From the sequence record OQ718158.1: a stretch of 64,000 nt of DNA; one strand, 5' to 3'. Positions 1-20,126 of this stretch are shown here, in pieces (position 1 is the first letter of the stretch; every line of letters starts with the position of its first letter). Source of the DNA: Escherichia phage vB_Ec-M-J. The notes under the pieces are model-generated. The model was not told where the DNA came from, did no database searches, and worked only from the letters and a program-made list of their open reading frames with translations. A program made the translations under genes and the position numbers.

Positions 1-70
1 AGTAGGCAGAGGAAGTCTGCCGTACTTTGTAGTTTCCAAGCTCCTTTTCCATTTTGCAAATTACATCAAA

Positions 71-98
71 TGTAATCAAAAGTAATCAAAAGTAATCA
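71..98. repeat. tandem ~10-bp direct repeat (A)AGTAATCA(A) x3
   Basis: tgtaatcaaa/agtaatcaaa/agtaatcacg read directly. Confidence 0.6.
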
Positions 99-375
99 CG
101 CAATGATTAGTACTGAATTATTACTTTCACCTTAATTTCAATTACCCCTTTACCCTTCGGGGTAAAATTCCATTACCCCTTGAGGCTCCAGCAAAAAGTT
201 GGTTAGTACTCCATCCTAAATCTCGATCCTAAAAATTTTGGAGTACCTATGAAATAAAAGTTGGATCTTCGAAATTTGAAATTTACGTTGGGACGTTTAT
301 GATTTGTGGGATATAATGATGTTTGTAGTCGGGTAGTTTTCAAGAATATCAGCACTGAATAATGAAAGAAAGCTA

Positions 376-403
376 TTGACATTATGATTCAGTACTGTAT
401 AAT
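376..403 (+). promoter_or_regulatory. sigma70-like promoter in left non-coding region
   Basis: TTGACA-16-TATAAT followed by GTTCTACATAGGG (same downstream box as early promoters). Confidence 0.5.
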
Positions 404-731
404 GTTCTACATAGGGTGATGAGTTGCTGCGAACAATTCATTTACTCTACCTCCTGTCGTGAGACAGTACAGAAAAGATAGTTCCTCCTGTGGTGGTACA
501 TCTTTTTGAACCTCATATGAAAATCGTAATAACAGTACTGATATTAACAGAATGGTGTCAGTACTGATTTTAATCTAAAGCATTATGCCACCAGCACAAG
601 CTGGTGGATTCCCTCTAACAGTATTCAGTACTACATGATGGTCTTCATCCTCCTAGGGTAACATAGTGAGGGCTATGATGGCAGTACTGAATACTCCCTT
701 TCAAAAGATAGATCTATGGTATAGTACTGAC

Positions 732-920
732 GGATTTTGGGCGTAGTTACCCTGGATGGATTTTGGACGTAGATATGTCTAGCCCTCCAGAAGTCTGGAA
801 GTAAAGATGGCTATCCATCTAGACGGCTAAACGGCTAGATTTCTGGATGGCTAGATGGCTAGACGTTTGGACGGCTAAACGGCTAGATGGTTACACGTCT
901 GGAAGTATAGACGGCTAAAT
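732..920. repeat. iteron-like cluster of short direct repeats
   Basis: GGATTTTGG(G/A)CGTAG x2; GTCTGGAAGTA x2; ACGGCTAAACGGCTAGAT x2; GGCTAGATGGCTAGACG. Confidence 0.6.
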
Positions 921-1355
921 CAAAATTTTATTTTGTTTTTCCAATAGTTCCCCTACCGCGTGGGGATAGTTTCCCCGCAGTATCTGGAGTTAGATTTTTC
1001 TGAATCTGGAATCATTATCTTATAAACTGGGGGCAATGTCAACGACCTGGACGGATATTTTTAAAAATTTTTTCAGTACTGAATTTTGGGCGTAACTATG
1101 CACCCGGTGGGCTTGAGTCTTTCTCGACTTGATGGAACTATTATACAGTACTGAAAAAATAAAGCAATACCCTGGAAGCAAAAAAGTTTTAATTAATTTG
1201 CTTGCTATCCTGGGCCGGACTATGGTACTATATTTCAGTACTGAGAAAGTGCGTTTACCTGCTAGGGTGCGGGAGTGTATCCTTTTTTTATATCTTGAAT
1301 TTTGGGCGTAATTCCGCACCCTCTGGGGTTTCCGCTTTCTCGCGTCTATGTAGTA

Positions 1356-1383
1356 ATTATACGCTTTTTCAGGATCAAGTCAA
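1356..1383 (-). promoter_or_regulatory. candidate leftward promoter
   Basis: minus strand TTGACT-16-TATAAT; transcribes toward a GCACCC..GGG box. Confidence 0.35.
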
Positions 1384-1676
1384 TACCTAAAAACAAAATA
1401 ATTGAAAATAATTTAACGCGTTTAAACGGCCCGTAAAGCCCTGGAATGATTGGAATGGTGCAAATGTATAGCTTAGGTGTATTAATGCGTTAGAATGCGT
1501 CTGAGGCCGTTTTACGGGGTATAGGGATGATTTGGTGGATTGATTCAGTACTGAATGATAGTACTACTATATAGAAAGATAGTTCCCCTGGATGGTTGCA
1601 GTACTGAATGATAGTACTGAATAATAGTTCCCCTATATAGAAAGAAAACTATTTTAAAAGTATTTGTAGAAAGTAC

Positions 1677-1734
1677 TTGCAAACTAAGTTTAACGGCGTA
1701 TAATGTTTTACATCGAGAGCGGGAACACTTCCCG
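1677..1734 (+). promoter_or_regulatory. early promoter + 5' stem-loop
   Basis: AAAGTACTTGCAA-16-TATAAT-GTTTTACATC then hairpin GCGGGAAcacTTCCCGC. Confidence 0.65.
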
Positions 1735-1759
1735 CTACATATTACGAGAGATTAAAACG

Positions 1760-2122
1760 ATGGCGACTCAAATCACTAAAATTATTGCTAACCTGGTTAA
1801 CTTTCGCGACGAGATGAAAGATCTTCCGGCAGAAACGGTAAAAATTCACATTTCAGCTTATCGGGAACTTATTGCAATGTTACCGCTTAAGCGTGAACAA
1901 TACGCCGCGACCGTGATGCTTGATGCGATGATCCATAAGATGATCGCCAGTGATTTAACGATGGTTTATCAGTATATGGGCGAAAATTTCGCGGTGTATA
2001 GTAAACCAGTACCAGGAATGGAAAGTACAGAAGTATTACACGGTTTAAATTTAAAACAAGATGCATGGGATAATATGCCTCGTTTCCTGGTATGGGCTGA
2101 CAGTGGCAAGATTTACGAATAA
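1760..2122 (+). CDS. hypothetical early protein (120 aa)
   Basis: ORF in track frame; start moved to ATG after RBS GAGAG; track start 1703 lies in promoter -10. Confidence 0.65.
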   Translation: MATQITKIIANLVNFRDEMKDLPAETVKIHISAYRELIAMLPLKREQYAATVMLDAMIHKMIASDLTMVYQYMGENFAVYSKPVPGMESTEVLHGLNLKQDAWDNMPRFLVWADSGKIYE

Positions 2123-2136
2123 GTTTTAAAAAGTAC

Positions 2137-2196
2137 TTGCAAACTAAGTTTAAAAGCGTATAATGTTTTACATCAGGTGGGGAATAGTTCCCCACT
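2137..2196 (+). promoter_or_regulatory. early promoter + 5' stem-loop
   Basis: TTGCAA-16-TATAAT-GTTTTACATC; hairpin GTGGGGAAtagTTCCCCAC. Confidence 0.65.
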
Positions 2197-2216
2197 ATAA
2201 TTAAGAGATTAATTTC

Positions 2217-2450
2217 ATGAGTACTATTTTAACTGTTTCTCAATCCGTTGCACTGACTGACCTATTAAACGCTTTAAGCCGTTGCACTGAGGTTGGCTTG
2301 TTTGATGTGGTAGACGTTGCACCGGACGTTATTAATCATTTTTGTGATGCGATGGAAGAATGTAAGGAAGATGATAGCCGTATGATGGCGGTCGCCTTTG
2401 AGGAAGTACAACCAGGTGAGATCAAAGGTTTACCAGTACTGAAAAAATAG
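2217..2450 (+). CDS. hypothetical early protein (77 aa)
   Basis: track ORF; own promoter and RBS. Confidence 0.65.
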   Translation: MSTILTVSQSVALTDLLNALSRCTEVGLFDVVDVAPDVINHFCDAMEECKEDDSRMMAVAFEEVQPGEIKGLPVLKK

Positions 2451-2453
2451 TAC

Positions 2454-2512
2454 TTGCAAACTAAGTTTAAAAGCGTATAATACTTTCTATCAGGTGGGGA
2501 ATAGTTCCCCAC
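2454..2512 (+). promoter_or_regulatory. early promoter + 5' stem-loop
   Basis: TTGCAA-16-TATAAT; hairpin GGTGGGGAAtagTTCCCCACT. Confidence 0.65.
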
Positions 2513-2532
2513 TATATAAGAGGATTTAAAAA

Positions 2533-2772
2533 ATGGCTAAATCAAAAATGTTCTTAGGTCACAAAAACAAAACTCATTGGAATGTAAGCCTTTGGATTAA
2601 TAACGATGAGTCATTGTACCGGTTGGCCCAGGACTTTATTAACGATAGCACTAATCGCAATGATGCGGCCCGTCATATGATGTTATTTTTAGAACAGACT
2701 GGACAAGATAAAACACCGGACGGATTCAAATATAGCACTACTGCGATCCGTGCGGCGATGGTTGGAATGTAA
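2533..2772 (+). CDS. hypothetical early protein; paralog of 4636..4875
   Basis: track ORF; shares HKNKTHWNVSLWINN...TPDGFKYSTTAIRAAMVGM with 4636 gene. Confidence 0.7.
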   Translation: MAKSKMFLGHKNKTHWNVSLWINNDESLYRLAQDFINDSTNRNDAARHMMLFLEQTGQDKTPDGFKYSTTAIRAAMVGM

Positions 2773-2798
2773 TAGAATAGAATTTATTTAAAGTACTA

Positions 2799-2823
2799 TT
2801 GCACGGGGATAGTACTTTATAAT
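2799..2823 (+). promoter_or_regulatory. degenerate promoter (short spacer)
   Basis: TTGCAC-13-TATAAT; the homologous element at 15302 has an intact 17-bp spacer. Confidence 0.3.
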
Positions 2824-2860
2824 AGTGTTTTATTCATACACCAACGATAAGGGCAACAGC

Positions 2861-3127
2861 ATGAATATTAAGTATTTTGCGACGCGTGAACAAGCTCGGA
2901 TCGCCGCACGGCAGGACGGGGCAACGTTTAAAGATATGGGCGTACAATCGGAACGTGGTAAACGTTGGGCCATTGTAAAGCGTAGTACCGCCAGATCATT
3001 ACAGTACTGGTTAGCGGCCTTAAAAAGTCCCGATAGTGTATCGCGTCGAGTGGTAGAAATAAAGCTCGACCGAAAGGGCAACCGCGTGACTGTGTACCGT
3101 ACTAAAAAGATTGCAGTACTTGAATAA
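2861..3127 (+). CDS. hypothetical early protein; paralog of 15375..15770
   Basis: start moved to ATG after RBS AAGGG; shares KYFATREQARIAAR...RKGNRVTVY with 15375 gene. Confidence 0.6.
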   Translation: MNIKYFATREQARIAARQDGATFKDMGVQSERGKRWAIVKRSTARSLQYWLAALKSPDSVSRRVVEIKLDRKGNRVTVYRTKKIAVLE

Positions 3128-3134
3128 AAAGTAC

Positions 3135-3193
3135 TTGCAAACTATGTTTAATGGCGTATAATGTTTTACATCGAGAGCGGGAACACTTCCCGC
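3135..3193 (+). promoter_or_regulatory. early promoter + 5' stem-loop
   Basis: TTGCAA-16-TATAAT-GTTTTACATC; hairpin GCGGGAAcacTTCCCGC. Confidence 0.65.
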
Positions 3194-3214
3194 CTATAAC
3201 CTGGAGTAATAAAA

Positions 3215-3445
3215 ATGACTAATATGTATATGACTGAAGTTAAAACCGTAAAAGATACTACCACGAATAAAACTACTTACTTACAGCGGATCTGCGGTGT
3301 ATGGCAACGTATCAGCAAATCAAAGTACTTTAAATTAACATCATATGCAAACCGTTCGGATTCATTCAGTACTGAAATAAAAGGTAATAAAGTACACCAA
3401 TACGGCACTTATTATTATTATAGCCTGGACGCGATTGCAGTCTAA
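3215..3445 (+). CDS. hypothetical early protein (76 aa)
   Basis: track ORF; promoter + RBS GGAG. Confidence 0.6.
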   Translation: MTNMYMTEVKTVKDTTTNKTTYLQRICGVWQRISKSKYFKLTSYANRSDSFSTEIKGNKVHQYGTYYYYSLDAIAV

Positions 3446-3475
3446 GCAGTTTACAAATCTTTACAATTGCCGGTA

Positions 3476-3504
3476 TTGACTTATTTTGTCAGTACTGGCA
3501 TAAT
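3476..3504 (+). promoter_or_regulatory. sigma70-like promoter upstream of conserved box
   Basis: TTGACT-17-CATAAT. Confidence 0.5.
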
Positions 3505-3536
3505 GTATTCATTGGCAGATAAGCCGTAGCCCATAG

Positions 3537-3565
3537 GGTGCGGGAGTGTATCTATAGAAAAATTA
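3537..3565 (+). promoter_or_regulatory. conserved ~29-bp box (TAGCCCAyAGGGTGC..GTGTATCTAT)
   Basis: one of about 10 copies in the window, always 25-50 bp downstream of a promoter. Confidence 0.5.
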
Positions 3566-3567
3566 GT

Positions 3568-3600
3568 TTAGTACAGTTACAATTGTGCACCCGGTGGGTT
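3568..3600 (-). promoter_or_regulatory. inverted copy of conserved box
   Basis: reverse complement of GTGCACCCGGTGGGTTAGC matches the box. Confidence 0.45.
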
Positions 3601-3619
3601 AGCTGTTGTCATGGGGTAT

Positions 3620-3648
3620 ATTATGCCAGTACTTGATAATGCTGTCAA
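3620..3648 (-). promoter_or_regulatory. leftward promoter convergent with 3476 promoter
   Basis: minus strand TTGACA-17-CATAAT. Confidence 0.45.
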
Positions 3649-3693
3649 TACTTTTTTAATATTCAGTACTGAAAACTATTTTTAAAAAGTACT

Positions 3694-3720
3694 TGCAAAC
3701 TATGTTTAAAGGCGTATAAT
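3694..3720 (+). promoter_or_regulatory. early promoter (no immediate hairpin; long leader)
   Basis: TTGCAA-15-TATAAT-GTTTTACATC. Confidence 0.6.
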
Positions 3721-3810
3721 GTTTTACATCAGGACGGGGAACGAAATAAGTAACTTCCCGTTAAGTAGCCCAGGAGTAAGGCACACGAAAAACTCCCCTG
3801 ATAAAATAGT
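3721..3810 (+). promoter_or_regulatory. structured ~90-nt leader, duplicated at 14175..14262
   Basis: CAGGACGGGGAACGAAA.AAGTAAC..CCCGTTAAGTAG.CCAGGAGTAAG...AAAAACTCCCCTGATAAAATAG nearly identical in both copies. Confidence 0.5.
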
Positions 3811-3838
3811 TTGACAATTGTTTTTAAAAGCGTATAAT
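3811..3838 (+). promoter_or_regulatory. second (tandem) promoter before 3871 gene
   Basis: TTGACA-16-TATAAT. Confidence 0.5.
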
Positions 3839-3870
3839 ACTTACATCAACTACTGAATGAGGGTTACAAA

Positions 3871-4545
3871 ATGAAAACTATCACTACTACTACTTTCGTT
3901 ATGGATTTTTCTGAATTGAATGAGGGTTGCAAAGCGAAAACTGTCACTAATACTACTTTCGTTATGGATTTTTCTGAATTGAACGCAGAACAAAAAACGT
4001 CAGCTATCGAACTGGTTCGGGAACGTGAAAAAAACTTAAACGATGATTATTTTTCTGAAAGTGAAATTGAATACTATAAAGAAACAGTACTACCGGAATA
4101 TGGCATTAATGACGCTGAAATACAATTCAGTGGTTTTTGGTCCCAGGGTGACGGTGCATCAATCAGTACTGACCACGTTGACGCAGTGAAGTTTTTACGC
4201 AAGGTAAGAGCATTAACTAAATATCGCTCAATCCGTCACTTGCTGAATGAAGATGATTTGGCGATGAGTGTAAAGCGTTCTCACTCCCACTACTCGCATG
4301 AGAATACTGTAAGCGGGTACATTGAATCGGCTTACACTGATTTAACCGCAAAACAAGAAACGTTAGTTAATGAGCTTGAGGAACTACTCACTGAAACTAT
4401 TCGTGAATTATCCCGCAAGTTGTACCGTGATTTAGAGAATGCATATGAGGATCAATTCACTACTGAAAACATTACGGCACTGATTGAGGGTAACGAATAT
4501 CAATTCAATGTTATTAATGGCGTAGTAGAATCAATCGAATATTAA
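3871..4545 (+). CDS. hypothetical protein (224 aa) with N-terminal tandem duplication
   Basis: track ORF; TTTFVMDFSELN(E/A) repeated twice near N-terminus. Confidence 0.7.
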   Translation: MKTITTTTFVMDFSELNEGCKAKTVTNTTFVMDFSELNAEQKTSAIELVREREKNLNDDYFSESEIEYYKETVLPEYGINDAEIQFSGFWSQGDGASISTDHVDAVKFLRKVRALTKYRSIRHLLNEDDLAMSVKRSHSHYSHENTVSGYIESAYTDLTAKQETLVNELEELLTETIRELSRKLYRDLENAYEDQFTTENITALIEGNEYQFNVINGVVESIEY

Positions 4546-4557
4546 TTTAAAAAGTAC

Positions 4558-4619
4558 TTGCAAACTAAGTTTAAAGGCGTATAATACTTTATATCGAGGC
4601 GGGGAGTGGTTCCCCGCTC
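4558..4619 (+). promoter_or_regulatory. early promoter + 5' stem-loop
   Basis: TTGCAA-16-TATAAT; hairpin GAGGCGGGGAgtggTTCCCCGCTC. Confidence 0.65.
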
Positions 4620-4635
4620 AAACGAGGATTAAAAA

Positions 4636-4875
4636 ATGGCTAGTACTAAAACTTACAACGGGCACAAAAACAAAACTCATTGGAATGTTTCCTTATGGAT
4701 TAATAACGGTGAGTCATTGTATCGGCTTGCTCAAAGTTGCATCGCACAAAGTAGAACTAAAGATATTGCTGCGGAATGTATGTACCGCAGATTAAAAGCC
4801 AACGGTACTACTACAACGCCGGACGGATTCAAGTATAGCACTACGGCGATCCGTGCTGCAATGGTTGGAATGTAA
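4636..4875 (+). CDS. hypothetical early protein; paralog of 2533..2772
   Basis: track ORF; conserved N- and C-terminal blocks with 2533 gene. Confidence 0.7.
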   Translation: MASTKTYNGHKNKTHWNVSLWINNGESLYRLAQSCIAQSRTKDIAAECMYRRLKANGTTTTPDGFKYSTTAIRAAMVGM

Positions 4876-4895
4876 TATTCAGTACTGTAACAATG

Positions 4896-4920
4896 GCGGG
4901 GAATGGTTCCCGCCTTTATT
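4896..4920 (+). terminator. hairpin + T-rich tail (terminator or 5' stabiliser)
   Basis: GGCGGGGAAtggTTCCCGCC then TTTATT. Confidence 0.45.
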
Positions 4921-4933
4921 GAGGGTTTATCTA

Positions 4934-5194
4934 ATGAGTAAAGTAATTAGCTATACAGTACTAAGCAAGTCATTATCTATTAGCCAGTGCACCGATGGTT
5001 ATTGGCTATTTGATGAAACGCGTGGAATGAATTTAGCTATGCGTGCAAAAACTGCTGAGGCGGCGTATCTTGAGGCACTGGAATACTACCAGGAACGTTT
5101 AACGGAAGTAGAAGAAGATTATAAAAGCCTCAAAGCGAAAGTAGATCATTTCGTCGGTCAATTCATCGAGGAAGACGACGACAAACAATATTGA
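4934..5194 (+). CDS. hypothetical early protein (86 aa)
   Basis: start moved to ATG after RBS GAGGG; track start 4853 runs through the hairpin. Confidence 0.55.
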   Translation: MSKVISYTVLSKSLSISQCTDGYWLFDETRGMNLAMRAKTAEAAYLEALEYYQERLTEVEEDYKSLKAKVDHFVGQFIEEDDDKQY

Positions 5195-5203
5195 AAAAGT
5201 ACT

Positions 5204-5261
5204 TGCAATTAGTTTTAAGTACTGTATAATGGTTTACATCAAAGGGAGAAATGGTTCTCCC
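5204..5261 (+). promoter_or_regulatory. early promoter + 5' stem-loop
   Basis: TTGCAA-15-TATAAT; hairpin GGGAGAAatggTTCTCCC. Confidence 0.65.
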
Positions 5262-5280
5262 TGGTAATGAGGAAAATAAA

Positions 5281-5502
5281 ATGGCTAATATCACTACTCT
5301 TTCCCAACTGGAAGCACTGGTTAAATCTATGCGGGAACATGCCGACAAAATCGGCGTACAAGATCCAGCCGTTTGCTTCTGCGACGAATTGAATGATGAT
5401 ACCCTGGTAATAGCAGAAGTCCAGGACGTTTCTAACTATTCCTCGCGTTACACTGGCGGCGTAGCAAATAAAGGTGACTTCTGTTTATACCTTACAAAAT
5501 AA
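5281..5502 (+). CDS. hypothetical early protein (73 aa)
   Basis: start moved to ATG after RBS GAGG; track start 5251 lies in hairpin. Confidence 0.6.
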   Translation: MANITTLSQLEALVKSMREHADKIGVQDPAVCFCDELNDDTLVIAEVQDVSNYSSRYTGGVANKGDFCLYLTK

Positions 5503-5505
5503 CAA

Positions 5506-5537
5506 CGCGGGGAGATAATAACTCCCCGTTACTTTTT
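5506..5537 (+). terminator. rho-independent terminator candidate
   Basis: CGGGGAGataataaCTCCCCG then TTACTTTTT. Confidence 0.5.
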
Positions 5538-5608
5538 CAGTACTGAATCATTTAATAGACGGATCTCGGCACCCGGTGGGTTAGTGACTGTTTCGTCTTG
5601 ATGTAGTA

Positions 5609-5637
5609 ATTATGCCAGTACTGGATGCACTTGTCAA
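5609..5637 (-). promoter_or_regulatory. leftward promoter reading into inverted box copy
   Basis: minus strand TTGACA-17-CATAAT; GCACCCGGTGGGTTAG downstream. Confidence 0.4.
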
Positions 5638-5670
5638 CAATTATTTTTCAAATACTTTTTATTAAAATAC

Positions 5671-5725
5671 TTGCAATTAGTTTTTAAACGCGTATAATGT
5701 TTTGCATAGGGGGAGCGGTTCCCCT
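5671..5725 (+). promoter_or_regulatory. early promoter + 5' stem-loop
   Basis: TTGCAA-16-TATAAT; hairpin GGGGGAGcggTTCCCC. Confidence 0.6.
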
Positions 5726-5745
5726 GGTAACTAAGGAATAAGAAA

Positions 5746-5982
5746 ATGGTCGAACAAATCAAATCAACGTCTTCGAATGTAACGGGAACGGTAGCACACT
5801 TTACTAGTGATGAATCGCGGGGCGTTCCCTATTGTGCTGTACATGTAAACACTGAGGGTAACTACTGGTTTACGGTTTACGGATCATATTCATTTGGACG
5901 GCCAGGGCATCAAAAAATTCTGGATAAAGTACAACCAACGGGTAAAAATATCACTGCCGAAATGTTTTATAAAAAATCATAA
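5746..5982 (+). CDS. hypothetical early protein (78 aa)
   Basis: track ORF; RBS AAGGAA. Confidence 0.6.
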   Translation: MVEQIKSTSSNVTGTVAHFTSDESRGVPYCAVHVNTEGNYWFTVYGSYSFGRPGHQKILDKVQPTGKNITAEMFYKKS

Positions 5983-5987
5983 AGTAC

Positions 5988-6046
5988 TTGCAATTAGTTT
6001 TTAGTACTGTATAATATTTTACATCGCAAGGGGGAGCGGTTCCCCC
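5988..6046 (+). promoter_or_regulatory. early promoter + 5' stem-loop
   Basis: TTGCAA-16-TATAAT; hairpin GGGGGAGcggTTCCCCC. Confidence 0.6.
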
Positions 6047-6066
6047 TGGTAACTAAGGATAATCAA

Positions 6067-6366
6067 ATGAAAATTGCAATCATCGCCCTGGCTTTATCTG
6101 TTTCCTCTTTCGCTGTTAATGCGTCATTAGATGTAAGTAGTGAAAAATTCATTCAGTGCACTGTTGCAATGACCGATGAAAGAACTGGCGAGATTGTATT
6201 AAAGGATTTAGAGATCCAGCCGGAAGCATTTAAAAACGGGCCGTTCCATGAAGAAGACGAAAAAGGTAGCACGACAATTTATTACGATGCCAGTACTAAA
6301 CGCGGTTCGGTCACTGTAATGGATACTGAGAAAGTAACTCATACTGGCGTTATTAATTGCCGTTGA
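6067..6366 (+). CDS. secreted/periplasmic small protein (signal peptide)
   Basis: N-terminus MKIAIIALALSVSSFAVNA-S looks like a Sec signal peptide. Confidence 0.65.
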   Translation: MKIAIIALALSVSSFAVNASLDVSSEKFIQCTVAMTDERTGEIVLKDLEIQPEAFKNGPFHEEDEKGSTTIYYDASTKRGSVTVMDTEKVTHTGVINCR

Positions 6367-6387
6367 TAGATACTACGGGGTAACATC

Positions 6388-6618
6388 ATGACTAAGCGAA
6401 TTGTTTTACTTAACGAAAGCAGTACTACACAACTACTTAACGCCGTGCATTATGATATTGAAACGAGCGTTAATCTTATCAGTACTGTCGTACTGTTGGA
6501 CACTGGAAAGGTCGCCAATGATAAAGCGATTGCAGGTATATTAACGGATCTTGAGCCTGGTAGCAGTGCACCCATAACGTTAAATGGTAAAGTGTTTAAT
6601 ATTTTACTCACTGATTAA
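6388..6618 (+). CDS. hypothetical protein (76 aa)
   Basis: track ORF directly after 6067 gene; RBS GGGG. Confidence 0.55.
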   Translation: MTKRIVLLNESSTTQLLNAVHYDIETSVNLISTVVLLDTGKVANDKAIAGILTDLEPGSSAPITLNGKVFNILLTD

Positions 6619-6624
6619 GTACAT

Positions 6625-6650
6625 AGCCCACCTGGTGGGCTTTTTTTGTT
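6625..6650 (+). terminator. rho-independent terminator
   Basis: AGCCCACctgGTGGGCT then TTTTTTTG. Confidence 0.7.
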
Positions 6651-6701
6651 TTTGTAGTATCGTAGTACTGAGATACTTTGAAAATAGTTTTAAAAAAGTA
6701 G

Positions 6702-6729
6702 TTGACATTACCGCAGAAAAGCGTAGAAT
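6702..6729 (+). promoter_or_regulatory. sigma70-like promoter with long leader
   Basis: TTGACA-16-TAGAAT. Confidence 0.5.
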
Positions 6730-6852
6730 GTATTACATCAAGACGGGGAGCACTAAGTAGACCGCCAGTAAGTCGAACGAAAAACTGGACACGTCGAGAA
6801 AACTTTGATACACTAATAAACGTAAACTAAACTTTAATTGAGGATTTATAAA

Positions 6853-7335
6853 ATGGCTAATGTAAAATCATTCATCAAAGCACTGGTAGCAAATGAAACT
6901 AACGTCGCGGCTGAGATCCTGGCTGAACTGGATAACGATACCATGAAAGCGGTACGCAATAATTTTAACATCGCGTACAGTACTGCGAAAGAACTACAAG
7001 CAAATAAAGCGGCAGAAATTGAAGCGGCAAAGGCTGCCCGTGAAGCAGAACTACAAGCAACAATCGAAAGTATTCAGGCGGCAGTAGTTGGATTGGATCT
7101 GGAAGTAGTTACAGAGATGGCACAAAAAGCCCTGGCGGTTAAGTATGGGGAAGACAAGCCAGAAGTAAAAGCCAAAAAATGGATTCAGGAACGCGTAGCG
7201 GTAGTACTGGATAATGGGGAAGAATATCTGATTCCGGTGCGTGGTAACTGTATTGCGGTAGTACTGGACGCGATTAACGCCAGCGGTATGACTCGCGAGG
7301 AATGGATCGAATCTCATCGCAAAGTTGAAGCATAA
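6853..7335 (+). CDS. hypothetical protein, Ala/Glu/Lys-rich helical N-terminus (160 aa)
   Basis: track ORF; start moved from TTG to ATG after RBS GAGG. Confidence 0.65.
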   Translation: MANVKSFIKALVANETNVAAEILAELDNDTMKAVRNNFNIAYSTAKELQANKAAEIEAAKAAREAELQATIESIQAAVVGLDLEVVTEMAQKALAVKYGEDKPEVKAKKWIQERVAVVLDNGEEYLIPVRGNCIAVVLDAINASGMTREEWIESHRKVEA

Positions 7336-7356
7336 CAATTAAAGTACTGAATCACT

Positions 7357-7386
7357 AGCCCACTGTATAAGTGGGCTTTTTTGTGT
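7357..7386 (+). terminator. rho-independent terminator
   Basis: AGCCCACtgtataaGTGGGCT then TTTTTTG. Confidence 0.7.
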
Positions 7387-7393
7387 TTATCGT

Positions 7394-7500
7394 TTACCAG
7401 GCCACCAGCACCGCCTAGAAACGATTCTAACGTATTAAACTGTTTATCTGATGCATTGCCCTAGCTGGTGGCGTGAAGGTCGTTAGAATGCGATTGAGAG
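7394..7500. repeat. long imperfect inverted repeat
   Basis: CCACCAGC..GCTGGTGG and CGATTCTAACG..CGTTAGAATGCG arms; CGTTAGAATGCG also at ~1486 and ~11794. Confidence 0.45.
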
Positions 7501-7536
7501 CGTTTAAAGTATTTTGCAAAAAGTAATAAAAAGTAC

Positions 7537-7597
7537 TTGCACGATTAAGAGATTAGCGTATAATGTTTTACATCGAGAGGGGGAAACGGTTCTCCTT
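7537..7597 (+). promoter_or_regulatory. early promoter + 5' stem-loop
   Basis: TTGCAC-16-TATAAT-GTTTTACATC; hairpin GGGGGAAacggTTCTCC. Confidence 0.6.
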
Positions 7598-7619
7598 CCA
7601 AATCAAAGGAATCAAAACA

Positions 7620-7847
7620 ATGGCTATCGTAATCACTCGCGTAACTGGTACTACTGGCAATTCTTCTACTGTTGCTGTAATTACTAATAAGAAAGGTGCG
7701 GAATTGCATTTTGCAATGGATAAATGGGCCGTTAATGAGTTCGGTCAGTGGGCAAGTGTAGCATACATTGAAACCTATCAAGTGCCGTCGATTAGTTTAA
7801 CTGATTTGGGCGTTGAGCGTATCCTTTGCCTTGATGAATTAAATTAA
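7620..7847 (+). CDS. hypothetical early protein (75 aa)
   Basis: start moved to ATG after RBS AAGGA; track start 7563 lies in promoter. Confidence 0.65.
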   Translation: MAIVITRVTGTTGNSSTVAVITNKKGAELHFAMDKWAVNEFGQWASVAYIETYQVPSISLTDLGVERILCLDELN

Positions 7848-7853
7848 AAAAGT

Positions 7854-7914
7854 ACTTGCAAAGTAAATCGAATAAAGTATAATACATTACATCAAGGGGA
7901 GAAATGGTTCTCCC
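7854..7914 (+). promoter_or_regulatory. early promoter + 5' stem-loop
   Basis: TTGCAA-18-TATAAT; hairpin GGGGAGAAatggTTCTCCCC. Confidence 0.6.
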
Positions 7915-7932
7915 CACTACAAGGAAACTAAA

Positions 7933-8076
7933 ATGAAAACTTGTCAATGTGGTCAGAAATCTATTACGGGTTTAAAGCGGGGCGTTGCTCTTTGCCAGTA
8001 CCATTATAATTTACAAGTATGGGGTAAAGAATGGGCCGACCAGGTGGAAGCAGCAAAGAAAGCAAAAAGTAAGTAA
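7933..8076 (+). CDS. small Cys/His-containing protein (47 aa), not in ORF track
   Basis: ATG after RBS AAGGAA; CQCG...LCQYH could bind metal. Confidence 0.5.
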   Translation: MKTCQCGQKSITGLKRGVALCQYHYNLQVWGKEWADQVEAAKKAKSK

Positions 8077-8094
8077 AATATTATCACAGTACTA

Positions 8095-8123
8095 TTGACA
8101 TAGTTTGATAGTACTGGCATAAT
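8095..8123 (+). promoter_or_regulatory. class-B early promoter
   Basis: ATTATCACAGTACTATTGACA-17-CATAAT; same cassette at 8389, 11231, 11502, 19423. Confidence 0.6.
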
Positions 8124-8156
8124 AGATTTTATCAAGACAACTAAGAGGAAACAATA

Positions 8157-8369
8157 ATGGCTATCATCACAAAAATCAAAGTTAACAAATCACTGGTTAA
8201 ACTTGAACAAGTGAAAGCAGGTTATAAAGTATCGTGGTGCGGTATGTATCGGATGTTCACCGATATAGACAATGCAATCAAGTACTACACTGACACCGTT
8301 GCCTCATTCGTTCGTGCTGATGTGGTTATGGCAGTGGCAACGCACAAAGCAGCGAAAGAAAGTAAGTAA
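8157..8369 (+). CDS. hypothetical early protein (70 aa)
   Basis: track ORF; RBS AAGAGGAAA. Confidence 0.65.
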   Translation: MAIITKIKVNKSLVKLEQVKAGYKVSWCGMYRMFTDIDNAIKYYTDTVASFVRADVVMAVATHKAAKESK

Positions 8370-8388
8370 AAATATTATCACAGTACTA

Positions 8389-8417
8389 TTGACATAGTTT
8401 GATAGTACTGGCATAAT
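8389..8417 (+). promoter_or_regulatory. class-B early promoter
   Basis: TTGACA-17-CATAAT, near-identical to 8095 copy. Confidence 0.6.
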
Positions 8418-8458
8418 AGATTTTATCAAGACAACATATTAATTTAAGGAATACAAAA

Positions 8459-8782
8459 ATGGCTAAAACTATCATTAACACCGTTTCCCTGGCTGCAATC
8501 CGTGCAATCAATGTTGACGGTAAACGTTGGACTGATTCATATGGCAATACTTATCATTCTTGTCATGTAAGCGTTGAACTGGATAACGGTTTGAATGATC
8601 TGGCGGTTGAATCATTTACTTATGGCTATGAAGATGCATATCAACAAACGGCGTTATCTCTCTTAAAGGAATCAGTAGACGGGCTTAATACTGATGAAAC
8701 CTCCCTTACTCGTGTGTGCAATGATCTTAATATCCCGTTGCATTGTACTGTACAGAATGTTAAACGCAAAAAAGATCTTTAA
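8459..8782 (+). CDS. hypothetical early protein; paralog of 14956..15279
   Basis: track ORF; shares RWTDS(Y/H)GNTYHSC.VS...FTYGY...KRKKD with 14956 gene. Confidence 0.7.
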   Translation: MAKTIINTVSLAAIRAINVDGKRWTDSYGNTYHSCHVSVELDNGLNDLAVESFTYGYEDAYQQTALSLLKESVDGLNTDETSLTRVCNDLNIPLHCTVQNVKRKKDL

Positions 8783-8861
8783 TTAGCTTTACTTTATGCA
8801 GATACTTTGATATAGTGTCTGCATAGGGGAAAGAAATTAAACTACTTAAGAGGATCGTATA

Positions 8862-9131
8862 ATGAAAAATATCAGTACTTTAATCGATGCAGGTACTCAT
8901 GTTCGTCGGTCTATGGTTGCAACCAGTACTACAAAACAAGTAGCGAGCGGTTATCTTGTATTTGTGCACGATGGTAAACTCCTGGAACGTTCAATCAATT
9001 TTGATGTTAAAAACAATTGCCGTTTTATTATCTTTAAGCGTGAGCAATATAAAATTGATTTACCAGCAAAGCCCATTAGTGGGGCGTACAACGTGCAATC
9101 ATTGTTTGAACGTCAACCATACACCTATTAA
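8862..9131 (+). CDS. hypothetical protein (89 aa)
   Basis: track ORF; RBS AAGAGGA. Confidence 0.55.
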   Translation: MKNISTLIDAGTHVRRSMVATSTTKQVASGYLVFVHDGKLLERSINFDVKNNCRFIIFKREQYKIDLPAKPISGAYNVQSLFERQPYTY

Positions 9132-9182
9132 TCAAAACATCGTTAGCGGTCGATTCAGGCCGCTTATATTGGGGATTATACC

Positions 9183-9455
9183 ATGAACGTTAATCAAGTA
9201 CTGAATGAGATCGAAAGCATCATTAAACCGATGAAGCGTACTGATGCTATGTTAACACCGGAAGAATGCCGCCTTTATGAGCGTTACAGCGTCGAACAAG
9301 TCCAGGCAATGGCTATGGCTACCCCAGCCGTTAAACCGCCTGAGAATGCGTTACAGGACGTTACAGGGGATTATATCATCAATCCAGTACTAGGGAAGAT
9401 GGCTGCAATCACCGAAGATCAACAAGACTACTTAAGCCAGTACTTAAAAGGTTAA
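9183..9455 (+). CDS. hypothetical protein (90 aa)
   Basis: track ORF; RBS GGGGA. Confidence 0.55.
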   Translation: MNVNQVLNEIESIIKPMKRTDAMLTPEECRLYERYSVEQVQAMAMATPAVKPPENALQDVTGDYIINPVLGKMAAITEDQQDYLSQYLKG

Positions 9456-9460
9456 TTAAT

Positions 9461-9670
9461 ATGCTTACTGTACAGGATAAGATCGACATCTTAAAGGTTA
9501 ATATGTATGTGATTGATGCAGTACCTGGTAAAGTATTTGCCTACGATGACACCACTGTAAGCGATTTCTACTATAGCCAGGCCGTGGGGGATCTTTCTGT
9601 ACAGTCGGTTATTGAAAACGTAGTTAATGCAGCGTATGAGCATTTACTTTCAAATAGTACTTGCAATTAG
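9461..9670 (+). CDS. hypothetical protein (69 aa)
   Basis: track ORF; 3' end runs into next promoter -35. Confidence 0.5.
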   Translation: MLTVQDKIDILKVNMYVIDAVPGKVFAYDDTTVSDFYYSQAVGDLSVQSVIENVVNAAYEHLLSNSTCN

Positions 9671-9720
9671 TTTTTAAACGCGTATAATGTTTTACATGAA
9701 GGGGAGAAATGATTCTCCCC
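9661..9720 (+). promoter_or_regulatory. early promoter + 5' stem-loop
   Basis: TTGCAA-16-TATAAT; hairpin GGGGAGAAatgaTTCTCCCC. Confidence 0.6.
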
Positions 9721-9739
9721 ACTAATTAAGGAATATGAA

Positions 9740-9886
9740 ATGAAAGCATCAAAAAAGAGTACTAACAAGAAAGCACGTTCAACCTTAGATGGGGTATTCC
9801 CTTTACGTTTCGTTGATGAAGTGGTTTCCTACCCGCCTGGCCTTACTCCTGAGATGGTAGAAAGTTTGCGTAAATCTAAAAAATAG
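9740..9886 (+). CDS. small basic protein (48 aa), not in ORF track
   Basis: ATG after RBS AAGGAA following promoter-hairpin. Confidence 0.5.
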   Translation: MKASKKSTNKKARSTLDGVFPLRFVDEVVSYPPGLTPEMVESLRKSKK

Positions 9887-9889
9887 TAC

Positions 9890-9949
9890 TTGCAATTAGT
9901 TTTTAGTACTGTATAATGTTTTACATGAAGGGGAGAAATGATTCTCCCC
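9890..9949 (+). promoter_or_regulatory. early promoter + 5' stem-loop
   Basis: TTGCAA-16-TATAAT; hairpin GGGGAGAAatgaTTCTCCCC. Confidence 0.6.
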
Positions 9950-9967
9950 AATAACAGGAGAAACAAA

Positions 9968-10120
9968 ATGAAACAATACAACGCTCGGTTTGATGTTACT
10001 ATCGGTAACGGCAAAGGTCAATTCTCTTTCAGTACTCGCAAAAGTTATACAGAAAACTTCCTGCGTAATTGTGCACTGACCGCCGCACAAATTAAACATT
10101 ACTTTCAGGCTAAAAAATGA
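9968..10120 (+). CDS. hypothetical small protein (50 aa)
   Basis: start moved to ATG after RBS AGGAG. Confidence 0.55.
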   Translation: MKQYNARFDVTIGNGKGQFSFSTRKSYTENFLRNCALTAAQIKHYFQAKK

Positions 10121-10206
10121 AATCATTAGCTTACTATAGTTCTGCGGTGATCGGTGCATTGATCGCGGCGTTGTTAGTAACCTATCTATTCTTTATGGTG
10201 ATTTAA
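10117..10206 (+). CDS. small hydrophobic peptide (29 aa, one predicted TM helix)
   Basis: ATGA overlap with upstream stop; MKSLAYYSSAVIGALIAALLVTYLFFMVI. Confidence 0.4.
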   Translation: MKSLAYYSSAVIGALIAALLVTYLFFMVI

Positions 10207-10350
10207 ATGAATCCAACAGGTTTAAACTATAAAAGTTGTTCGGCGTTTACGAAAGCAAATAAAGCGAATGCACGTAAAGCGAAAGTACAGGAATACATCA
10301 AGCAAGGCATGACGCGAAAAGCGGCGATTATAAAAGCTAAAAATAAATGA
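10207..10350 (+). CDS. small Lys/Ala-rich basic protein (47 aa)
   Basis: ATG immediately after upstream TAA. Confidence 0.4.
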   Translation: MNPTGLNYKSCSAFTKANKANARKAKVQEYIKQGMTRKAAIIKAKNK

Positions 10351-10440
10351 AAAAAGTGGTTGACTCCGGTCAGCCATTTTGCTATTATATATTCATTGAG
10401 AGATAGCTCACTAGCCCACAGGGTGCATAAGTGTATCTAT
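10351..10440 (+). promoter_or_regulatory. composite element: terminator-like hairpin overlapping promoter, then conserved box
   Basis: AAAAAGTGGTTGACtccgGTCAGCC; TTGACT-17-TATTAT; TAGCCCACAGGGTGCATAAGTGTATCTAT. Confidence 0.55.
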
Positions 10441-10481
10441 TATATGAGTATTGAGTACTGAAAACTATTTTTAAAAAGTAC

Positions 10482-10541
10482 TTGCAAACTATCTCAATAA
10501 GCGTATAATGTTTTACATCGAGAGGGGGAAACGGTTTCCCC
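10482..10541 (+). promoter_or_regulatory. early promoter + 5' stem-loop
   Basis: TTGCAA-16-TATAAT-GTTTTACATC; hairpin GGGGGAAacggTTTCCCC. Confidence 0.65.
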
Positions 10542-10561
10542 TGGTAATAAGGAAACAAATC

Positions 10562-10903
10562 ATGACTATCTCAATTGCTCAATCTAACTTTGAAAATGAA
10601 ATCATCGCCCAGGCACTGCGTTTAAATGATGGTCGGGCCGAAATTAATTACGGTTTCAATTCAGGCGGTTGCGAAAACTATCAGTACTTTGTAACGGCTG
10701 ATGGCGGTGTCCTGGGTATCAATACAGTTATTGTAAACATCCAAAAAATTAATTTCAATGATCCAGACGATAGCCAGTTTTACATCACTGGCGTAGACGT
10801 GAACTATGAGGATGACTCACTAACTGATGATCACACTGGCGAGCGGTTAGAAAGTGCATACGGTGAAGATGATTATCAGTCCGGTCCAGAAGATTTCGAA
10901 TAA
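10562..10903 (+). CDS. hypothetical acidic protein (113 aa)
   Basis: start moved to ATG after RBS AAGGAA. Confidence 0.65.
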   Translation: MTISIAQSNFENEIIAQALRLNDGRAEINYGFNSGGCENYQYFVTADGGVLGINTVIVNIQKINFNDPDDSQFYITGVDVNYEDDSLTDDHTGERLESAYGEDDYQSGPEDFE

Positions 10904-10916
10904 TATAAAAAATAGT

Positions 10917-10976
10917 TTGACAATAGATTATAGTACTGTATAATTAATTACATCAAGGGGAGAAAAACTTCTCCCC
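10917..10976 (+). promoter_or_regulatory. early promoter + 5' stem-loop
   Basis: TTGACA-16-TATAAT; hairpin GGGGAGAAaaacTTCTCCCC. Confidence 0.65.
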
Positions 10977-10998
10977 ACTAACAGAGAGAGAAAACAAA

Positions 10999-11211
10999 AT
11001 GGCTAATATCCGGTCGAAATTAAAAAATGCAAAACAAGTTTTATTTTCAGATCATGAATACTTTAATAAAGATATTACAGGAGTTACAAGTATCAAGGAA
11101 GTAAAAGAAAAAACCGGCGTTTTGTGTGATGTGCGATTAGTTGGGACATTTGGGAATAACGTGCTATATCGCTGCGGTGATTACAATTTTACACTGACTA
11201 TCATTAACTAA
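10999..11211 (+). CDS. hypothetical early protein (70 aa)
   Basis: track ORF; RBS GAGAGAGA. Confidence 0.6.
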   Translation: MANIRSKLKNAKQVLFSDHEYFNKDITGVTSIKEVKEKTGVLCDVRLVGTFGNNVLYRCGDYNFTLTIIN

Positions 11212-11230
11212 AAATATTATCACAGTACTA

Positions 11231-11259
11231 TTGACATAGTTTGATAGTACTGACATAAT
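11231..11259 (+). promoter_or_regulatory. class-B early promoter
   Basis: TTGACA-17-CATAAT. Confidence 0.55.
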
Positions 11260-11294
11260 AACTTTTATCAACTACACTACTAAGGAATTAAAAA

Positions 11295-11474
11295 ATGGCT
11301 ATCATCGCAAAAACTGAAATCGTTGGTCTGGATTCTATCATCATGACGTTTGAAGATCAAAAAGGTATGTATGTAGTTTCCTATGGTGATTATGTTCGGG
11401 AGTATGAAACGGTAGACGAAGCCTTTGAAAGTTATATTCGCCAGGTGAATAAAGCATACGACGACTACCGCTAA
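11295..11474 (+). CDS. small protein (59 aa), not in ORF track
   Basis: ATG after RBS AAGGAA downstream of class-B promoter. Confidence 0.5.
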   Translation: MAIIAKTEIVGLDSIIMTFEDQKGMYVVSYGDYVREYETVDEAFESYIRQVNKAYDDYR

Positions 11475-11501
11475 AATATATTACCAGTACTATTAAATCT
11501 A

Positions 11502-11529
11502 TTGACAACGTTTGATAGTACTGTATAAT
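11502..11529 (+). promoter_or_regulatory. class-B early promoter
   Basis: TTGACA-16-TATAAT. Confidence 0.55.
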
Positions 11530-11573
11530 AAGTTTTATAAACAGTAGTTAACTTAACCTAAGAGAGAAACAAA

Positions 11574-11717: not shown

Positions 11718-11723
11718 TATTAT

Positions 11724-12020: not shown

Positions 12021-12023
12021 TTG

Positions 12024-12052: not shown

Positions 12053-12077
12053 ACTTACATCAAGACGAGAACGTCAC

Positions 12078-12106
12078 TAACCCATAGGGTGCACAAATGT
12101 AACTAT
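12078..12106 (+). promoter_or_regulatory. conserved box copy
   Basis: TAACCCATAGGGTGCACAAATGTAACTAT. Confidence 0.45.
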
Positions 12107-12110
12107 ATAA

Positions 12111-12606: not shown

Positions 12607-12612
12607 AAAGTA

Positions 12613-14005: not shown

Positions 14006-14092
14006 TTGAAAAAGGGATTGACTCCGGTCAGTCCCTTTGCTATTATATACGCATAGAAACAAATTAGCCCACCGGGTGCATAAATGTATCTA
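14006..14092 (+). promoter_or_regulatory. composite element: hairpin/promoter + conserved box
   Basis: AAAAAGGGATTGACtccgGTCAGTCCC; TTGACT-17-TATTAT; TAGCCCACCGGGTGCATAAATGTATCTAT. Confidence 0.55.
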
Positions 14093-14146
14093 TTGTTTGC
14101 TGGTGGCTAGTACTATCAAGTACTGAAAACTATTTTTAAAAAGTAC

Positions 14147-17280: not shown

Positions 17281-17370
17281 TTAAAAAAGGGATTGACTCC
17301 GGTCAGTCCCTTTGCTATTATATATTCATTGAGAGATAACTCACTGACCCATAGGGTGCGGAAGTGTATC
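17281..17370 (+). promoter_or_regulatory. composite element: hairpin/promoter + conserved box
   Basis: AAAAAAGGGATTGACtccgGTCAGTCCC; TTGACT-17-TATTAT; TGACCCATAGGGTGCGGAAGTGTATCTAT. Confidence 0.55.
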
Positions 17371-17416
17371 TATTATATAAGTATTCAGTACTGAAAACTA
17401 TTTTAAAAAAAAGTAC

Positions 17417-20036: not shown

Positions 20037-20126
20037 ATAAAAAAGGGATTGACTCCGGTCAGTCCCTTTGCTATTATATACGCATAGACAAAAACTAGCC
20101 CACAGGGTGCATAAGTGTATCCAAAA
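20037..20126 (+). promoter_or_regulatory. composite element: hairpin/promoter + conserved box
   Basis: AAAAAAGGGATTGACtccgGTCAGTCCC; TTGACT-17-TATTAT; TAGCCCACAGGGTGCATAAGTGTATCC. Confidence 0.55.

Follow-up and report, generated by a model that had tools for sequence, protein, structure and literature searches.

In coliphage 186, the promoters pR and pL each drive an operon, and interference between them chooses between lysis and lysogeny. The sponge RNAs CsrB/CsrC and RsmX/Y/Z and the RNA anti-CRISPR decoys consist of repeated hairpins with a conserved motif, are present in high dosage and act stoichiometrically, and the host-takeover modules of the SPO1 terminal repeat and the T5 pre-early region are described as protein-coding. 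In T4-type phages, the PeSL cassettes drive the adjacent open reading frame (ORF) and are without a conserved transcribed RNA (Arbiol et al., 2010, PMC2839356; Comeau et al., 2014, PMC4122927). The present analysis concerns positions 3476–3648 of a 64,000-nucleotide stretch of Escherichia phage vB_Ec-M-J (record OQ718158.1; the whole stretch is called the window below), where two sigma-70-type promoters face each other and each reads into its own copy of a conserved box. On balance, we consider this locus to be probably a tail-to-tail pair of separate small non-coding RNA genes, belonging to an autonomous immediate-early family whose RNAs would act in trans as protein ligands or decoys.

The box units resemble the PeSL cassettes in being repeated intergenic cassettes with a near-consensus sigma-70 early promoter and a stem-loop, in being concentrated in variable small-ORF regions, and in being tied to gene gain and loss between close relatives; a near-consensus early promoter within a variable early-gene cluster was indeed found here. 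They differ, however, in that they precede no gene, carry a conserved transcribed element of ~46 nt with a covarying hairpin, and occur in tail-to-tail pairs. Membership among the PeSLs was rejected on the ORF-driving property, as only 1 of 78 units preceded an ORF with a Shine-Dalgarno (SD) sequence without a further promoter, and the better PeSL analogue is provided by the ordinary gene promoters of the window, built as AAAAGTACTTGCAA...TATAAT followed by a GC stem-loop and an SD sequence. For the remaining systems the comparison draws on general knowledge. Strong convergent promoters roughly 60–100 bp apart, without a terminator between them, are shared with 186 pR/pL, but the box pair has no downstream gene, is repeated several times per genome and coexists with solitary copies. 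Repeated short hairpin modules, a conserved recognition motif, high dosage and, as proposed here, a stoichiometric mode of action are shared with the sponge and decoy RNAs; in contrast to these, no conserved GGA/CsrA-type motif is present in the box units (GGA stands in the 6-nt loop of some copies only), and each module is a gene of its own instead of one repeat among several in a single RNA. The likeness to SPO1 and T5 lies in very strong host-polymerase promoters and small genes within a long terminal repeat that would be expressed first. To our knowledge and in the literature searched, no non-coding RNA gene family has previously been described in the terminal-repeat takeover region of a phage. 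What stands out in the present family is its confinement to the terminal repeat, its invariant two-state core and the fixed spacing of its tail-to-tail pairs.

A first-pass annotation, made by a model from the letters of the window, had placed facing promoters at 3476..3504 (+) and 3620..3648 (−). Both were recovered by a consensus scan as near-consensus promoters with an extended −10, and each was found to read into a box copy of its own, the + copy ending at 3553 and the − copy at 3575. A − strand box had been put at 3568; a copy is present there, and 3568 itself is only roughly its left edge. The idea that the two promoters converge on a shared element was refuted, as two separate box copies lie 21 bp (3554–3574) apart. 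The features of the locus are listed below, with scores from a covariance model (CM) that was built from 17 seed units and whose E-values are only roughly calibrated.

3476..3504, + strand: sigma-70-type promoter of the + unit, TTGACT-17-CATAAT, 10/12 consensus match, TG extension
3511..3557, + strand: + unit, predicted small RNA (CM match 3513–3557, 46 bits, E 3e-10)
3554..3574, no strand: A/T-rich 21-bp spacer (atagaaaaattagtttagtac) between the 3′ ends of the units, as read from the sequence
3571..3613, − strand: − unit, predicted small RNA starting near A3612 (CM match 17 bits, E 0.019; also a pattern match)
3648..3620, − strand: sigma-70-type promoter of the − unit, TTGACA-17-CATAAT, 11/12 consensus match, TG extension

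In the + promoter, the −35 hexamer TTGACT (3476–3481) is followed by a 17-bp spacer containing CAGTACTG and by the extended −10 element TGgCATAAT, with the −10 hexamer at 3499–3504. The − promoter has TTGACA at 3648–3643, a 17-bp spacer containing AGTACTG and the extended −10 TGgCATAAT with its hexamer at 3625–3620. The two promoter regions form an inverted repeat, the arms of which (3473–3507 and 3617–3651) are 74% complementary. The palindrome AGTACT stands just upstream of the −10 in both facing promoters, and just upstream of the −35 in ordinary gene promoters.

Viral and metagenome pattern scans, followed by the covariance model, gave 237 matches representing 174 distinct sequences. The consensus unit is ~46 nt long and starts at the A of CAU. 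It opens with a hairpin of 3–5 bp (P1) closed by a purine-rich loop of 6–8 nt (AGAUAA, GAGAAA, GCGAAA and AGAACAA are examples), which is followed by a linker of 3–4 nt (usually YUAR), by CCC, by a 3-nt loop AYN (4 nt in few members) and by GGGUGC; six variable bases and YRYCY complete the 3′ part. A promoter matching the consensus at 9 or more of 12 positions was found directly upstream of 79 of the 81 distinct units (97.5%), compared with 7% at random positions. The −10 hexamer ends 7–10 nt (mode 8) before the first base of P1, and P1 would therefore sit 1–3 nt from the 5′ end of the RNA.

Covariation in P1 argues for selection on a transcript. Double-sided compensatory changes were observed at all 4 of its 4 pairs (117 cells), and the covariation score of 0.479 compared with 0.240 for shuffled alignments (0 of 500 shuffles reached it) and with at most 0.124 when the partner was slid. 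A consensus structure computed independently by RNAalifold contained P1 plus a 4-bp helix P2 (R-CCC / GGG-U). The sequence CCC..GGGTG was kept by 171 of the 174 distinct sequences, two independent members carried CCU...AGG, and a one-sided change of CCC/GGG was seen in none. A third helix, P3 (GGGUG with YRYCY), was paired in 96.5% of cells, and its 3′ side varies by transitions only, all of which preserve pairing (G-C/G-U or U-A/U-G). The CCC/GGGUGC module can, as modelled, form either P2 or P3, and switching between the two is possible. The loops drift even between 98%-identical phages, and the conserved bases sit in helices.

These elements could be traced in both members of the pair. In the + unit, P1 is formed by 3513–3516 with 3523–3526 around the loop AGAUAA, the linker UAG occupies 3527–3529, and the core consists of CCC (3530–3532) and GGGTGC (3536–3541). 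P2 would join G3529-CCC (3530–3532) to GGGU (3536–3539) across the loop AUA, and the alternative P3 would join GGGUGC (3536–3541) to GUAUCU (3548–3553) across the loop GGGAGU (3542–3547), 3553 being the last P3 base. The RNA probably starts at A3511, and its P1 is spaced from the −10 in agreement with the 8-nt mode of the family. In the − unit, an A/C-rich 5′ part (AUGACAACAGCUAA) is present and hairpin P1 is missing, followed by CCC (3598–3596), the loop ACC, GGGUGC (3592–3587), the loop ACAAUU (3586–3581) and GUAACU (3580–3575). Because it lacks P1, the − copy is more degenerate than any other full-length member in the window; its score of only 17 bits is explained by its falling into a P1-less subclass, in which an A/C-rich unstructured stretch replaces P1 and which accounts for 15 of 56 distinct 5′ regions. 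The box GGGTGCGGGAGTGTATC occurred 5 times in the window with up to 3 mismatches, against 0.03 expected, and CAGTACTGGCATAAT 18 times with up to 2 mismatches, against 0.17 expected. Between the units, the spacer 3554–3574 contained neither a hairpin nor a T-run terminator, and none was called there by a terminator scan.

The family is confined to a ~20-kb early region, the direct terminal repeat of related jumbo phages of the RaK2/GAP32/CBB/PBECO4 type, with about 10–12 copies per genome, doubled by the terminal repeat. In OR844650.1, a complete relative of 351,992 bp, nine copies and a half copy all lay within 302.4–321.2 kb. In Pectobacterium phage CBB, where a 26-kb stretch was scanned, 12 of 12 matches fell inside the annotated 22,456-bp terminal repeat and none in the 3.5 kb beyond, and Klebsiella phage Muenster has one copy within the 20,030-bp terminal repeat predicted by PhageTerm. 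Asteriusvirus records of 366–386 kb showed twice as many matching places as records of 348–356 kb, and the unit region was therefore read as present at both genome ends in the former. A BLAST search with the consensus unit returned 67 GenBank records; those listed were all phages of 320–386 kb except one 52-kb Klebsiella record, and eight host genera were represented (Escherichia, Klebsiella, Salmonella, Erwinia, Yersinia, Cronobacter, Pectobacterium and Serratia). Half-unit or whole-unit replacement was seen between close relatives, phage 121Q having a different 5′ half and ECO103 being without the copy at 12063 of the window. The window itself is 96–98% identical over bases 2800–4600 to Asteriusvirus jumbo coliphages (PBECO4, G17, Sharanji and others; 348–384 kb), and in these relatives the intergenic stretch that holds the promoter pair is without annotation. 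The sole minus-strand gene of the CBB terminal repeat, CBB_7 (L055 3793–3966), overlies a convergent unit pair (3800–3845 on the + strand and 3859–3904 on the − strand), and this annotated coding sequence is probably a mis-called ORF.

Bacterial genomes yielded no family member. Among 185,579 bacterial species genomes, a scan with the pattern returned nine matches, about the number estimated for chance, all in unrelated G+C-rich or coding contexts, and the + unit had no blastn match at E<=10 in 5,426 complete Escherichia coli genomes, CRISPR repeats included. Mimicry of a host sequence, be it a CRISPR repeat, an rRNA or tRNA fragment or a host small RNA, was rejected on these searches. When the whole window was searched against Rfam 15, nothing reached the gathering score; a permissive search of 900–6000 (E<=10) gave 4 weak matches, none of them relevant, and the only Rfam match to touch any unit was the IS102 RNA (3263–3513, 21 bits where 46 are needed, E=2), which reaches the start of the + unit. 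No tRNA or tmRNA gene was detected in the window by ARAGORN. No description of the family was found in Rfam, in GenBank annotation or in the literature searched, which included papers on CBB, RaK2, PA5oct, PeSL, EJP2 and phage small RNAs, and in the GenBank records that were examined none of the copies carried an RNA-gene annotation.

With the above evidence, it appears quite likely that the units are independent small-RNA genes. Host polymerase would transcribe them immediately after DNA entry, in the first minutes of infection, and short stable RNAs would result; these RNAs would be abundant and would act in trans by binding a protein that recognises the invariant core. In pairs without a terminator, the facing layout would probably set the 3′ ends through polymerase collision or mutual occlusion. 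As to function, we tentatively prefer stoichiometric binding, as a ligand or decoy, of a protein that recognises the core. The conserved bases lie in helices, the loops are free to vary and the gene copies are many, and a stoichiometric binder therefore fits better than an antisense seed; the decoy was also preferred because the units are without the terminator and U-tail typical of Hfq-dependent antisense regulators.

Several points weigh against this interpretation. The start sites, 3′ ends and abundance of the unit RNAs are predictions from sequence, as is the trans-acting decoy role. Most units are without a recognisable terminator, and a T-rich tail (4 or more T among the 6 nt that follow the model end) was found in only ~23% of them. 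The alignments used for counting base pairs, those of P1 included, were fitted to the model, and the modelled structure was favoured by this; P2 and P3 are mutually exclusive because both use the same GGG. The invariance of the core is partly due to ascertainment, since most of the remote members were retrieved with patterns requiring the core, although the same invariance was seen in the fully scanned regions (the window, the ECO103 genome and the CBB repeat). Finally, the single-sequence folds of the + and − units were unexceptional (z = −1.7 and +0.5, respectively).

The first-pass annotation had proposed an antisense pair or an interference switch. Under such a model, one promoter would block the other, or the two RNAs would pair, and a regulatory state would thereby be set. 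Its convergent geometry proved to be real and conserved; neither a shared element nor a gene that could be controlled was found. Among units at most 300 bp apart, 33 distinct convergent pairs, 0 divergent and 3 tandem arrangements were counted, and 23 distinct pairs, that at 3.5 kb included, share a gap of exactly 13 nt when measured between model ends, or 21 nt from one last P3 base to the other. The spacer sequences of these equal-gap pairs are unrelated. Polymerase collision geometry, a fixed 3′ RNA overlap and a multimeric DNA binder are possible causes of the fixed spacer length. Gaps of 24, 31 or 34 nt were found only where the spacer holds a Fur-box-like palindrome. Such palindromes, for example GAGAATGATAATCATTTAC or GCGAATGATAATCATTCGC, were seen in the longer spacers of related jumbo phages (among them L003 8078–8108, L034 6088–6111, L006 1276–1306, L009 334–364 and L114 2262–2295) and come close to the Fur-box consensus, GATAATGATAATCATTATC; the window contained no good copy, the best having 5 mismatches.

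A switch is favoured by the two strong promoters, with starts ~100 bp apart; as no canonical terminator lies between them, polymerase collision or complementary read-through RNA is possible. The predicted read-through RNAs are fully complementary, and each folds into a long hairpin of ~100 nt (−38.4 and −28.8 kcal/mol, z about −4). The facing promoters without an intervening terminator thus agree with an interference switch, but at 3476–3648 neither promoter expresses a controlled gene or regulator. No SD-bearing ORF was found downstream of either one, whether within the pair or past it, and the flanking ORFs are served by promoters of their own (those of the next gene, ORF 3871–4545, are at 3693 and 3811). 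Furthermore, most members are solitary, and antisense pairing therefore cannot be the basic function of the family: in 100 of 136 comparisons of adjacent members the distance was >300 bp, 7 of the 11 copies in the window stand alone, and about a quarter to a third of the copies belong to tail-to-tail pairs with the fixed 21-bp spacer (30 of 91 units when first scanned). Two recurrent partner types were seen in many phages, one with P1 GCCAGAACAAAGGC and the facing one with P1 GGAGGCGAAACUCC. The 3′ stems of partners were less alike than those of random units (2.9 vs 3.55 of 6 positions), which argues against selection for partner complementarity; such selection was rejected, as the opposite trend was found. 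The Fur-box-like palindromes in other pairs and a terminator on one solitary unit indicate that overlap is not required by the family. We therefore regard the switch as unlikely.

The small-RNA reading could be carried further, to a new immediate-early phage RNA class that would be made from the terminal repeat before any phage protein, with a two-helix toggle and with paired 3′ tails overlapping by ~21 nt. The overlap would give a defined RNA heterodimer or double-stranded RNA, and a conserved enterobacterial protein, for instance a nuclease, an immune sensor or a component of transcription or RNA processing, would be sequestered or misled; host takeover or anti-defence would then begin with RNA only. 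In this full form, the reading seems doubtful to us.

It is rather improbable that the box is a DNA-level site for protein binding or recombination, like the promoter/stem-loop shuffling cassettes of T4-type phages, with transcription being incidental. The units do lie in a variable early region of small ORFs where close relatives differ by half or whole units, CCC-N3-GGG is an inverted repeat in DNA, and a fixed, sequence-independent spacing of partner boxes is typical of the DNA site of a multimeric protein. The compensatory changes in P1, at a fixed distance from the promoter, indicate selection on a single-stranded transcript instead; an interval of 3 or 4 nt between CCC and GGG suits a hairpin loop and not rigid duplex recognition, and the longer spacers add 11, 18 or 21 bp, which does not keep a consistent helical phase.

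A role in cis was also weighed, in which the unit, as a leader or attenuator, would stabilise read-through transcription into the next gene or gate it, P2 being the anti-terminator and P3 the terminator. It is known that a hairpin 1–3 nt from the 5′ end stabilises mRNA. In accordance with such a leader, P2 and P3 exclude each other, a T-run follows P3 in some copies (1263–1289; ~23% of units), every + strand unit of the window sits just upstream of the promoter of the next gene, and one metagenomic copy (L034:12603) leads directly into an ORF. An ORF start was found within 160 nt of 23 of 78 distinct units, but only 2 of the 78 were flagged as having an SD-bearing ORF without an intervening promoter, and one of these proved to have a promoter that the pattern had missed; 76 were without a directly linked ORF. 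As four full units of the window point away from all genes and paired units face each other, a leader function is hardly probable.

It is least credible that the unit transcripts are primers of origins or recombination, forming stable RNA-DNA hybrids in the terminal repeat: T4-type origins combine a promoter with an unwinding element, the G-rich RNA segment GGGUGCGGGAG precedes A/T-rich DNA, and the units are confined to the terminal repeat next to a dense cluster of Chi sites, but ten to twelve clustered origins within 20 kb would be odd, convergent transcription accumulates positive and not negative supercoiling between promoters, and the selection on hairpin P1 is left unexplained.

Other assignments were rejected outright. 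A gene for a small protein or peptide was ruled out by the varying core interval (3 or 4 nt between CCC and GGG), the variable length of P1 and the missing start codon and SD sequence; neither of the latter two was conserved across units, most of which have no ATG, and the − unit contains an 11-codon ATG...TAA frame without an SD sequence. Readings based on peptide coding, on leaderless translation or on in-frame stops in the linker were inconsistent among members. The terminator hairpin and U-tail of an Hfq-dependent enterobacterial small RNA were absent from the pair and from most units, exceptions being 1263–1289 and the unit 5553–5598 (hairpin 5528–5508). Antitermination RNAs of the lambda nut or HK022 put type were dismissed, as no operon lies downstream; a boxA-like CGCUCUUUA was not seen in units when the alignments were read, no formal search being made, and the P1 loops GAGAAA and GCGAAA recall boxB loops only loosely, by eye. 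EcoKI/EcoBI sites, a Chi mimic, the RfaH ops element and a CsrA GGA-hairpin mimic did not fit in spacing or consensus, as compared from general knowledge. A long-range closing helix between the 5′ and 3′ ends (AUAG with CUAU) was rejected as a family feature since cognate duplexes were barely better than non-cognate ones (−3.87 vs −3.50 kcal/mol; permutation p ~0.02 with relatedness uncontrolled), and a three-way junction, with the linker UAG paired to CUA after P3, was dropped when no covariation between linker and 3′ stem was apparent by eye.

Over the whole window, the pattern CCC-N2-5-GGGTGC gave ten copies, six on the + and four on the − strand, each with a strong, sequence-varied promoter ~30 nt upstream. 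The covariance model recovered the same ten units plus one 3′ half copy (1263–1282) and nothing more below E=1 in the 64 kb. All of them lie within 1–20 kb, a part of the window made of small ORFs each with an individual promoter; the credible genes of the window are all on the + strand. The members apart from the 3.5-kb pair are as follows.

1084..1129, − strand: family member, solitary and leftward (CM 45.1 bits)
1263..1282, + strand: degenerate member, 3′ half only (GGGTGCGGGAGTGTATCC followed by T7, terminator-like; CM 16.4 bits, model positions 23–42)
1300..1383, − strand: family member 1300–1345 with promoter TTGACT-16-TATAAT (1383–1356; CM 31.1 bits)
5500..5637, − strand: family member 5553–5598 with promoter TTGACA-17-CATAAT (5637–5609; CM 51.3 bits)
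10397..10442, + strand: family member behind a combined terminator/promoter, with the −35 TTGACT inside the hairpin (CM 55.6 bits)
12063..12108, + strand: family member behind TTGACA-17-CATAAT (CM 40.6 bits)
14054..14095, + strand: P1-less family member, with a Chi site 4 nt downstream (CM 34.1 bits)
17330..17375, + strand: family member, the highest-scoring copy of the window (CM 61.9 bits)
20085..20126, + strand: P1-less family member, the last before the composition change at ~20–21 kb (CM 35.7 bits)

The leftward promoters that the first-pass annotation had noted at 1356 and 5609 were recovered here as 1383..1356 and 5637..5609, both matching the consensus at 11 of 12 positions. The half copy 1263–1282, over which a terminator-like call was made (1264–1283), forms with 1300–1345 the second tail-to-tail pair of the window, with a gap of 17 nt. 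The unit 5553–5598 is followed, 25 nt downstream, by a G+C-rich bidirectional terminator hairpin (5528–5508); having a promoter and an intrinsic terminator, it makes up a complete small-RNA gene of ~100 nt. The 12063 copy is missing from the close relative ECO103 4-12-1, and just downstream of this unit five copies of TGATCAA, each with a Dam GATC site, stand within ~85 bp (12113–12197), resembling iterons or a SeqA/Dam-sensitive cluster. A terminator is combined with a promoter in elements of the form AAAAAGGGATTGACTCCGGTCAGTCCCTTTGCTATTAT at 10352–10390, 14017–14050, 17288–17322 and 20043–20078. In these, the −35 TTGACT is part of a G+C-rich hairpin whose T-tail runs into the −10, and by this layout one 40-bp element apparently ends the upstream gene and starts the box unit.

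Some further observations were made on the early region. The E. coli Chi sequence GCTGGTGG was found 12 times in the window (588–20164, also 59909), against 0.37 expected; nine copies are on the + strand within 600–20164, two of them just after box units (14099 and 20157). In the whole genome of a relative, 9 of 16 Chi copies of the same orientation fell in the one 25-kb bin that contains the early region. The cluster may protect the DNA ends from RecBCD or promote recombination between terminal repeats. AGTACT was counted 258 times in the window against 21 expected, and CAGTACTG 57 times against 0.64, both being densest in 1–20000. In coding DNA, AGTACT was enriched in all three frames (2.8–4.1 per kb), and in the non-coding part of the first 21 kb it reached 11.4 per kb; it was present within 30 nt downstream of 53% of box units, compared with 13% of random 30-mers. 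It looks like a DNA-level signal.

A second conserved non-coding element has two copies in the window (3727–3806 and 14174–14256), in which an ordinary gene-type promoter is followed by ~80 nt (AUCAGGACGGGGAACGAAAUAAGUAAC..CCCGUUAAGUAGCCCAGGAGUAAGGCACACGAAAAACUCCCCUGAU) with two hairpins and a closing stem, then by a further consensus promoter TTGACA-16-TATAAT and a gene. Close to where the early region begins on the left, imperfect 8-bp periodic repeats (GGCTAGAT / GGCTAAAC / GTCTGGAA) occupy 757–916 and may have to do with the boundary of the terminal repeat or with packaging. A promoter segment of 67 bp occurs in two copies (8075–8141 and 8369–8435) that are 100% identical and offset by 294 bp, each copy driving a small ORF, and the small-ORF paralogues 2526–2774 and 4629–4877, 2.1 kb apart, are 80–91% identical; these duplications were taken as signs of recent cassette duplication in the early region.

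The RaK2/PBECO4/GAP32/CBB group of jumbo phages supplies candidates for phage therapy, and the ~20-kb terminal repeats of these phages have been annotated only with hypothetical small proteins. The present analysis indicates that ten or more non-coding RNA genes of one family, with strong promoters, are also present in these repeats. As the family is short, with an invariant core and natural variants, it is easy to test experimentally. If expressed as predicted, the unit RNAs would probably rank with the earliest and most abundant phage products of an infected cell, and they would therefore be candidates for RNA-based host takeover or counter-defence, an area that has been poorly explored.

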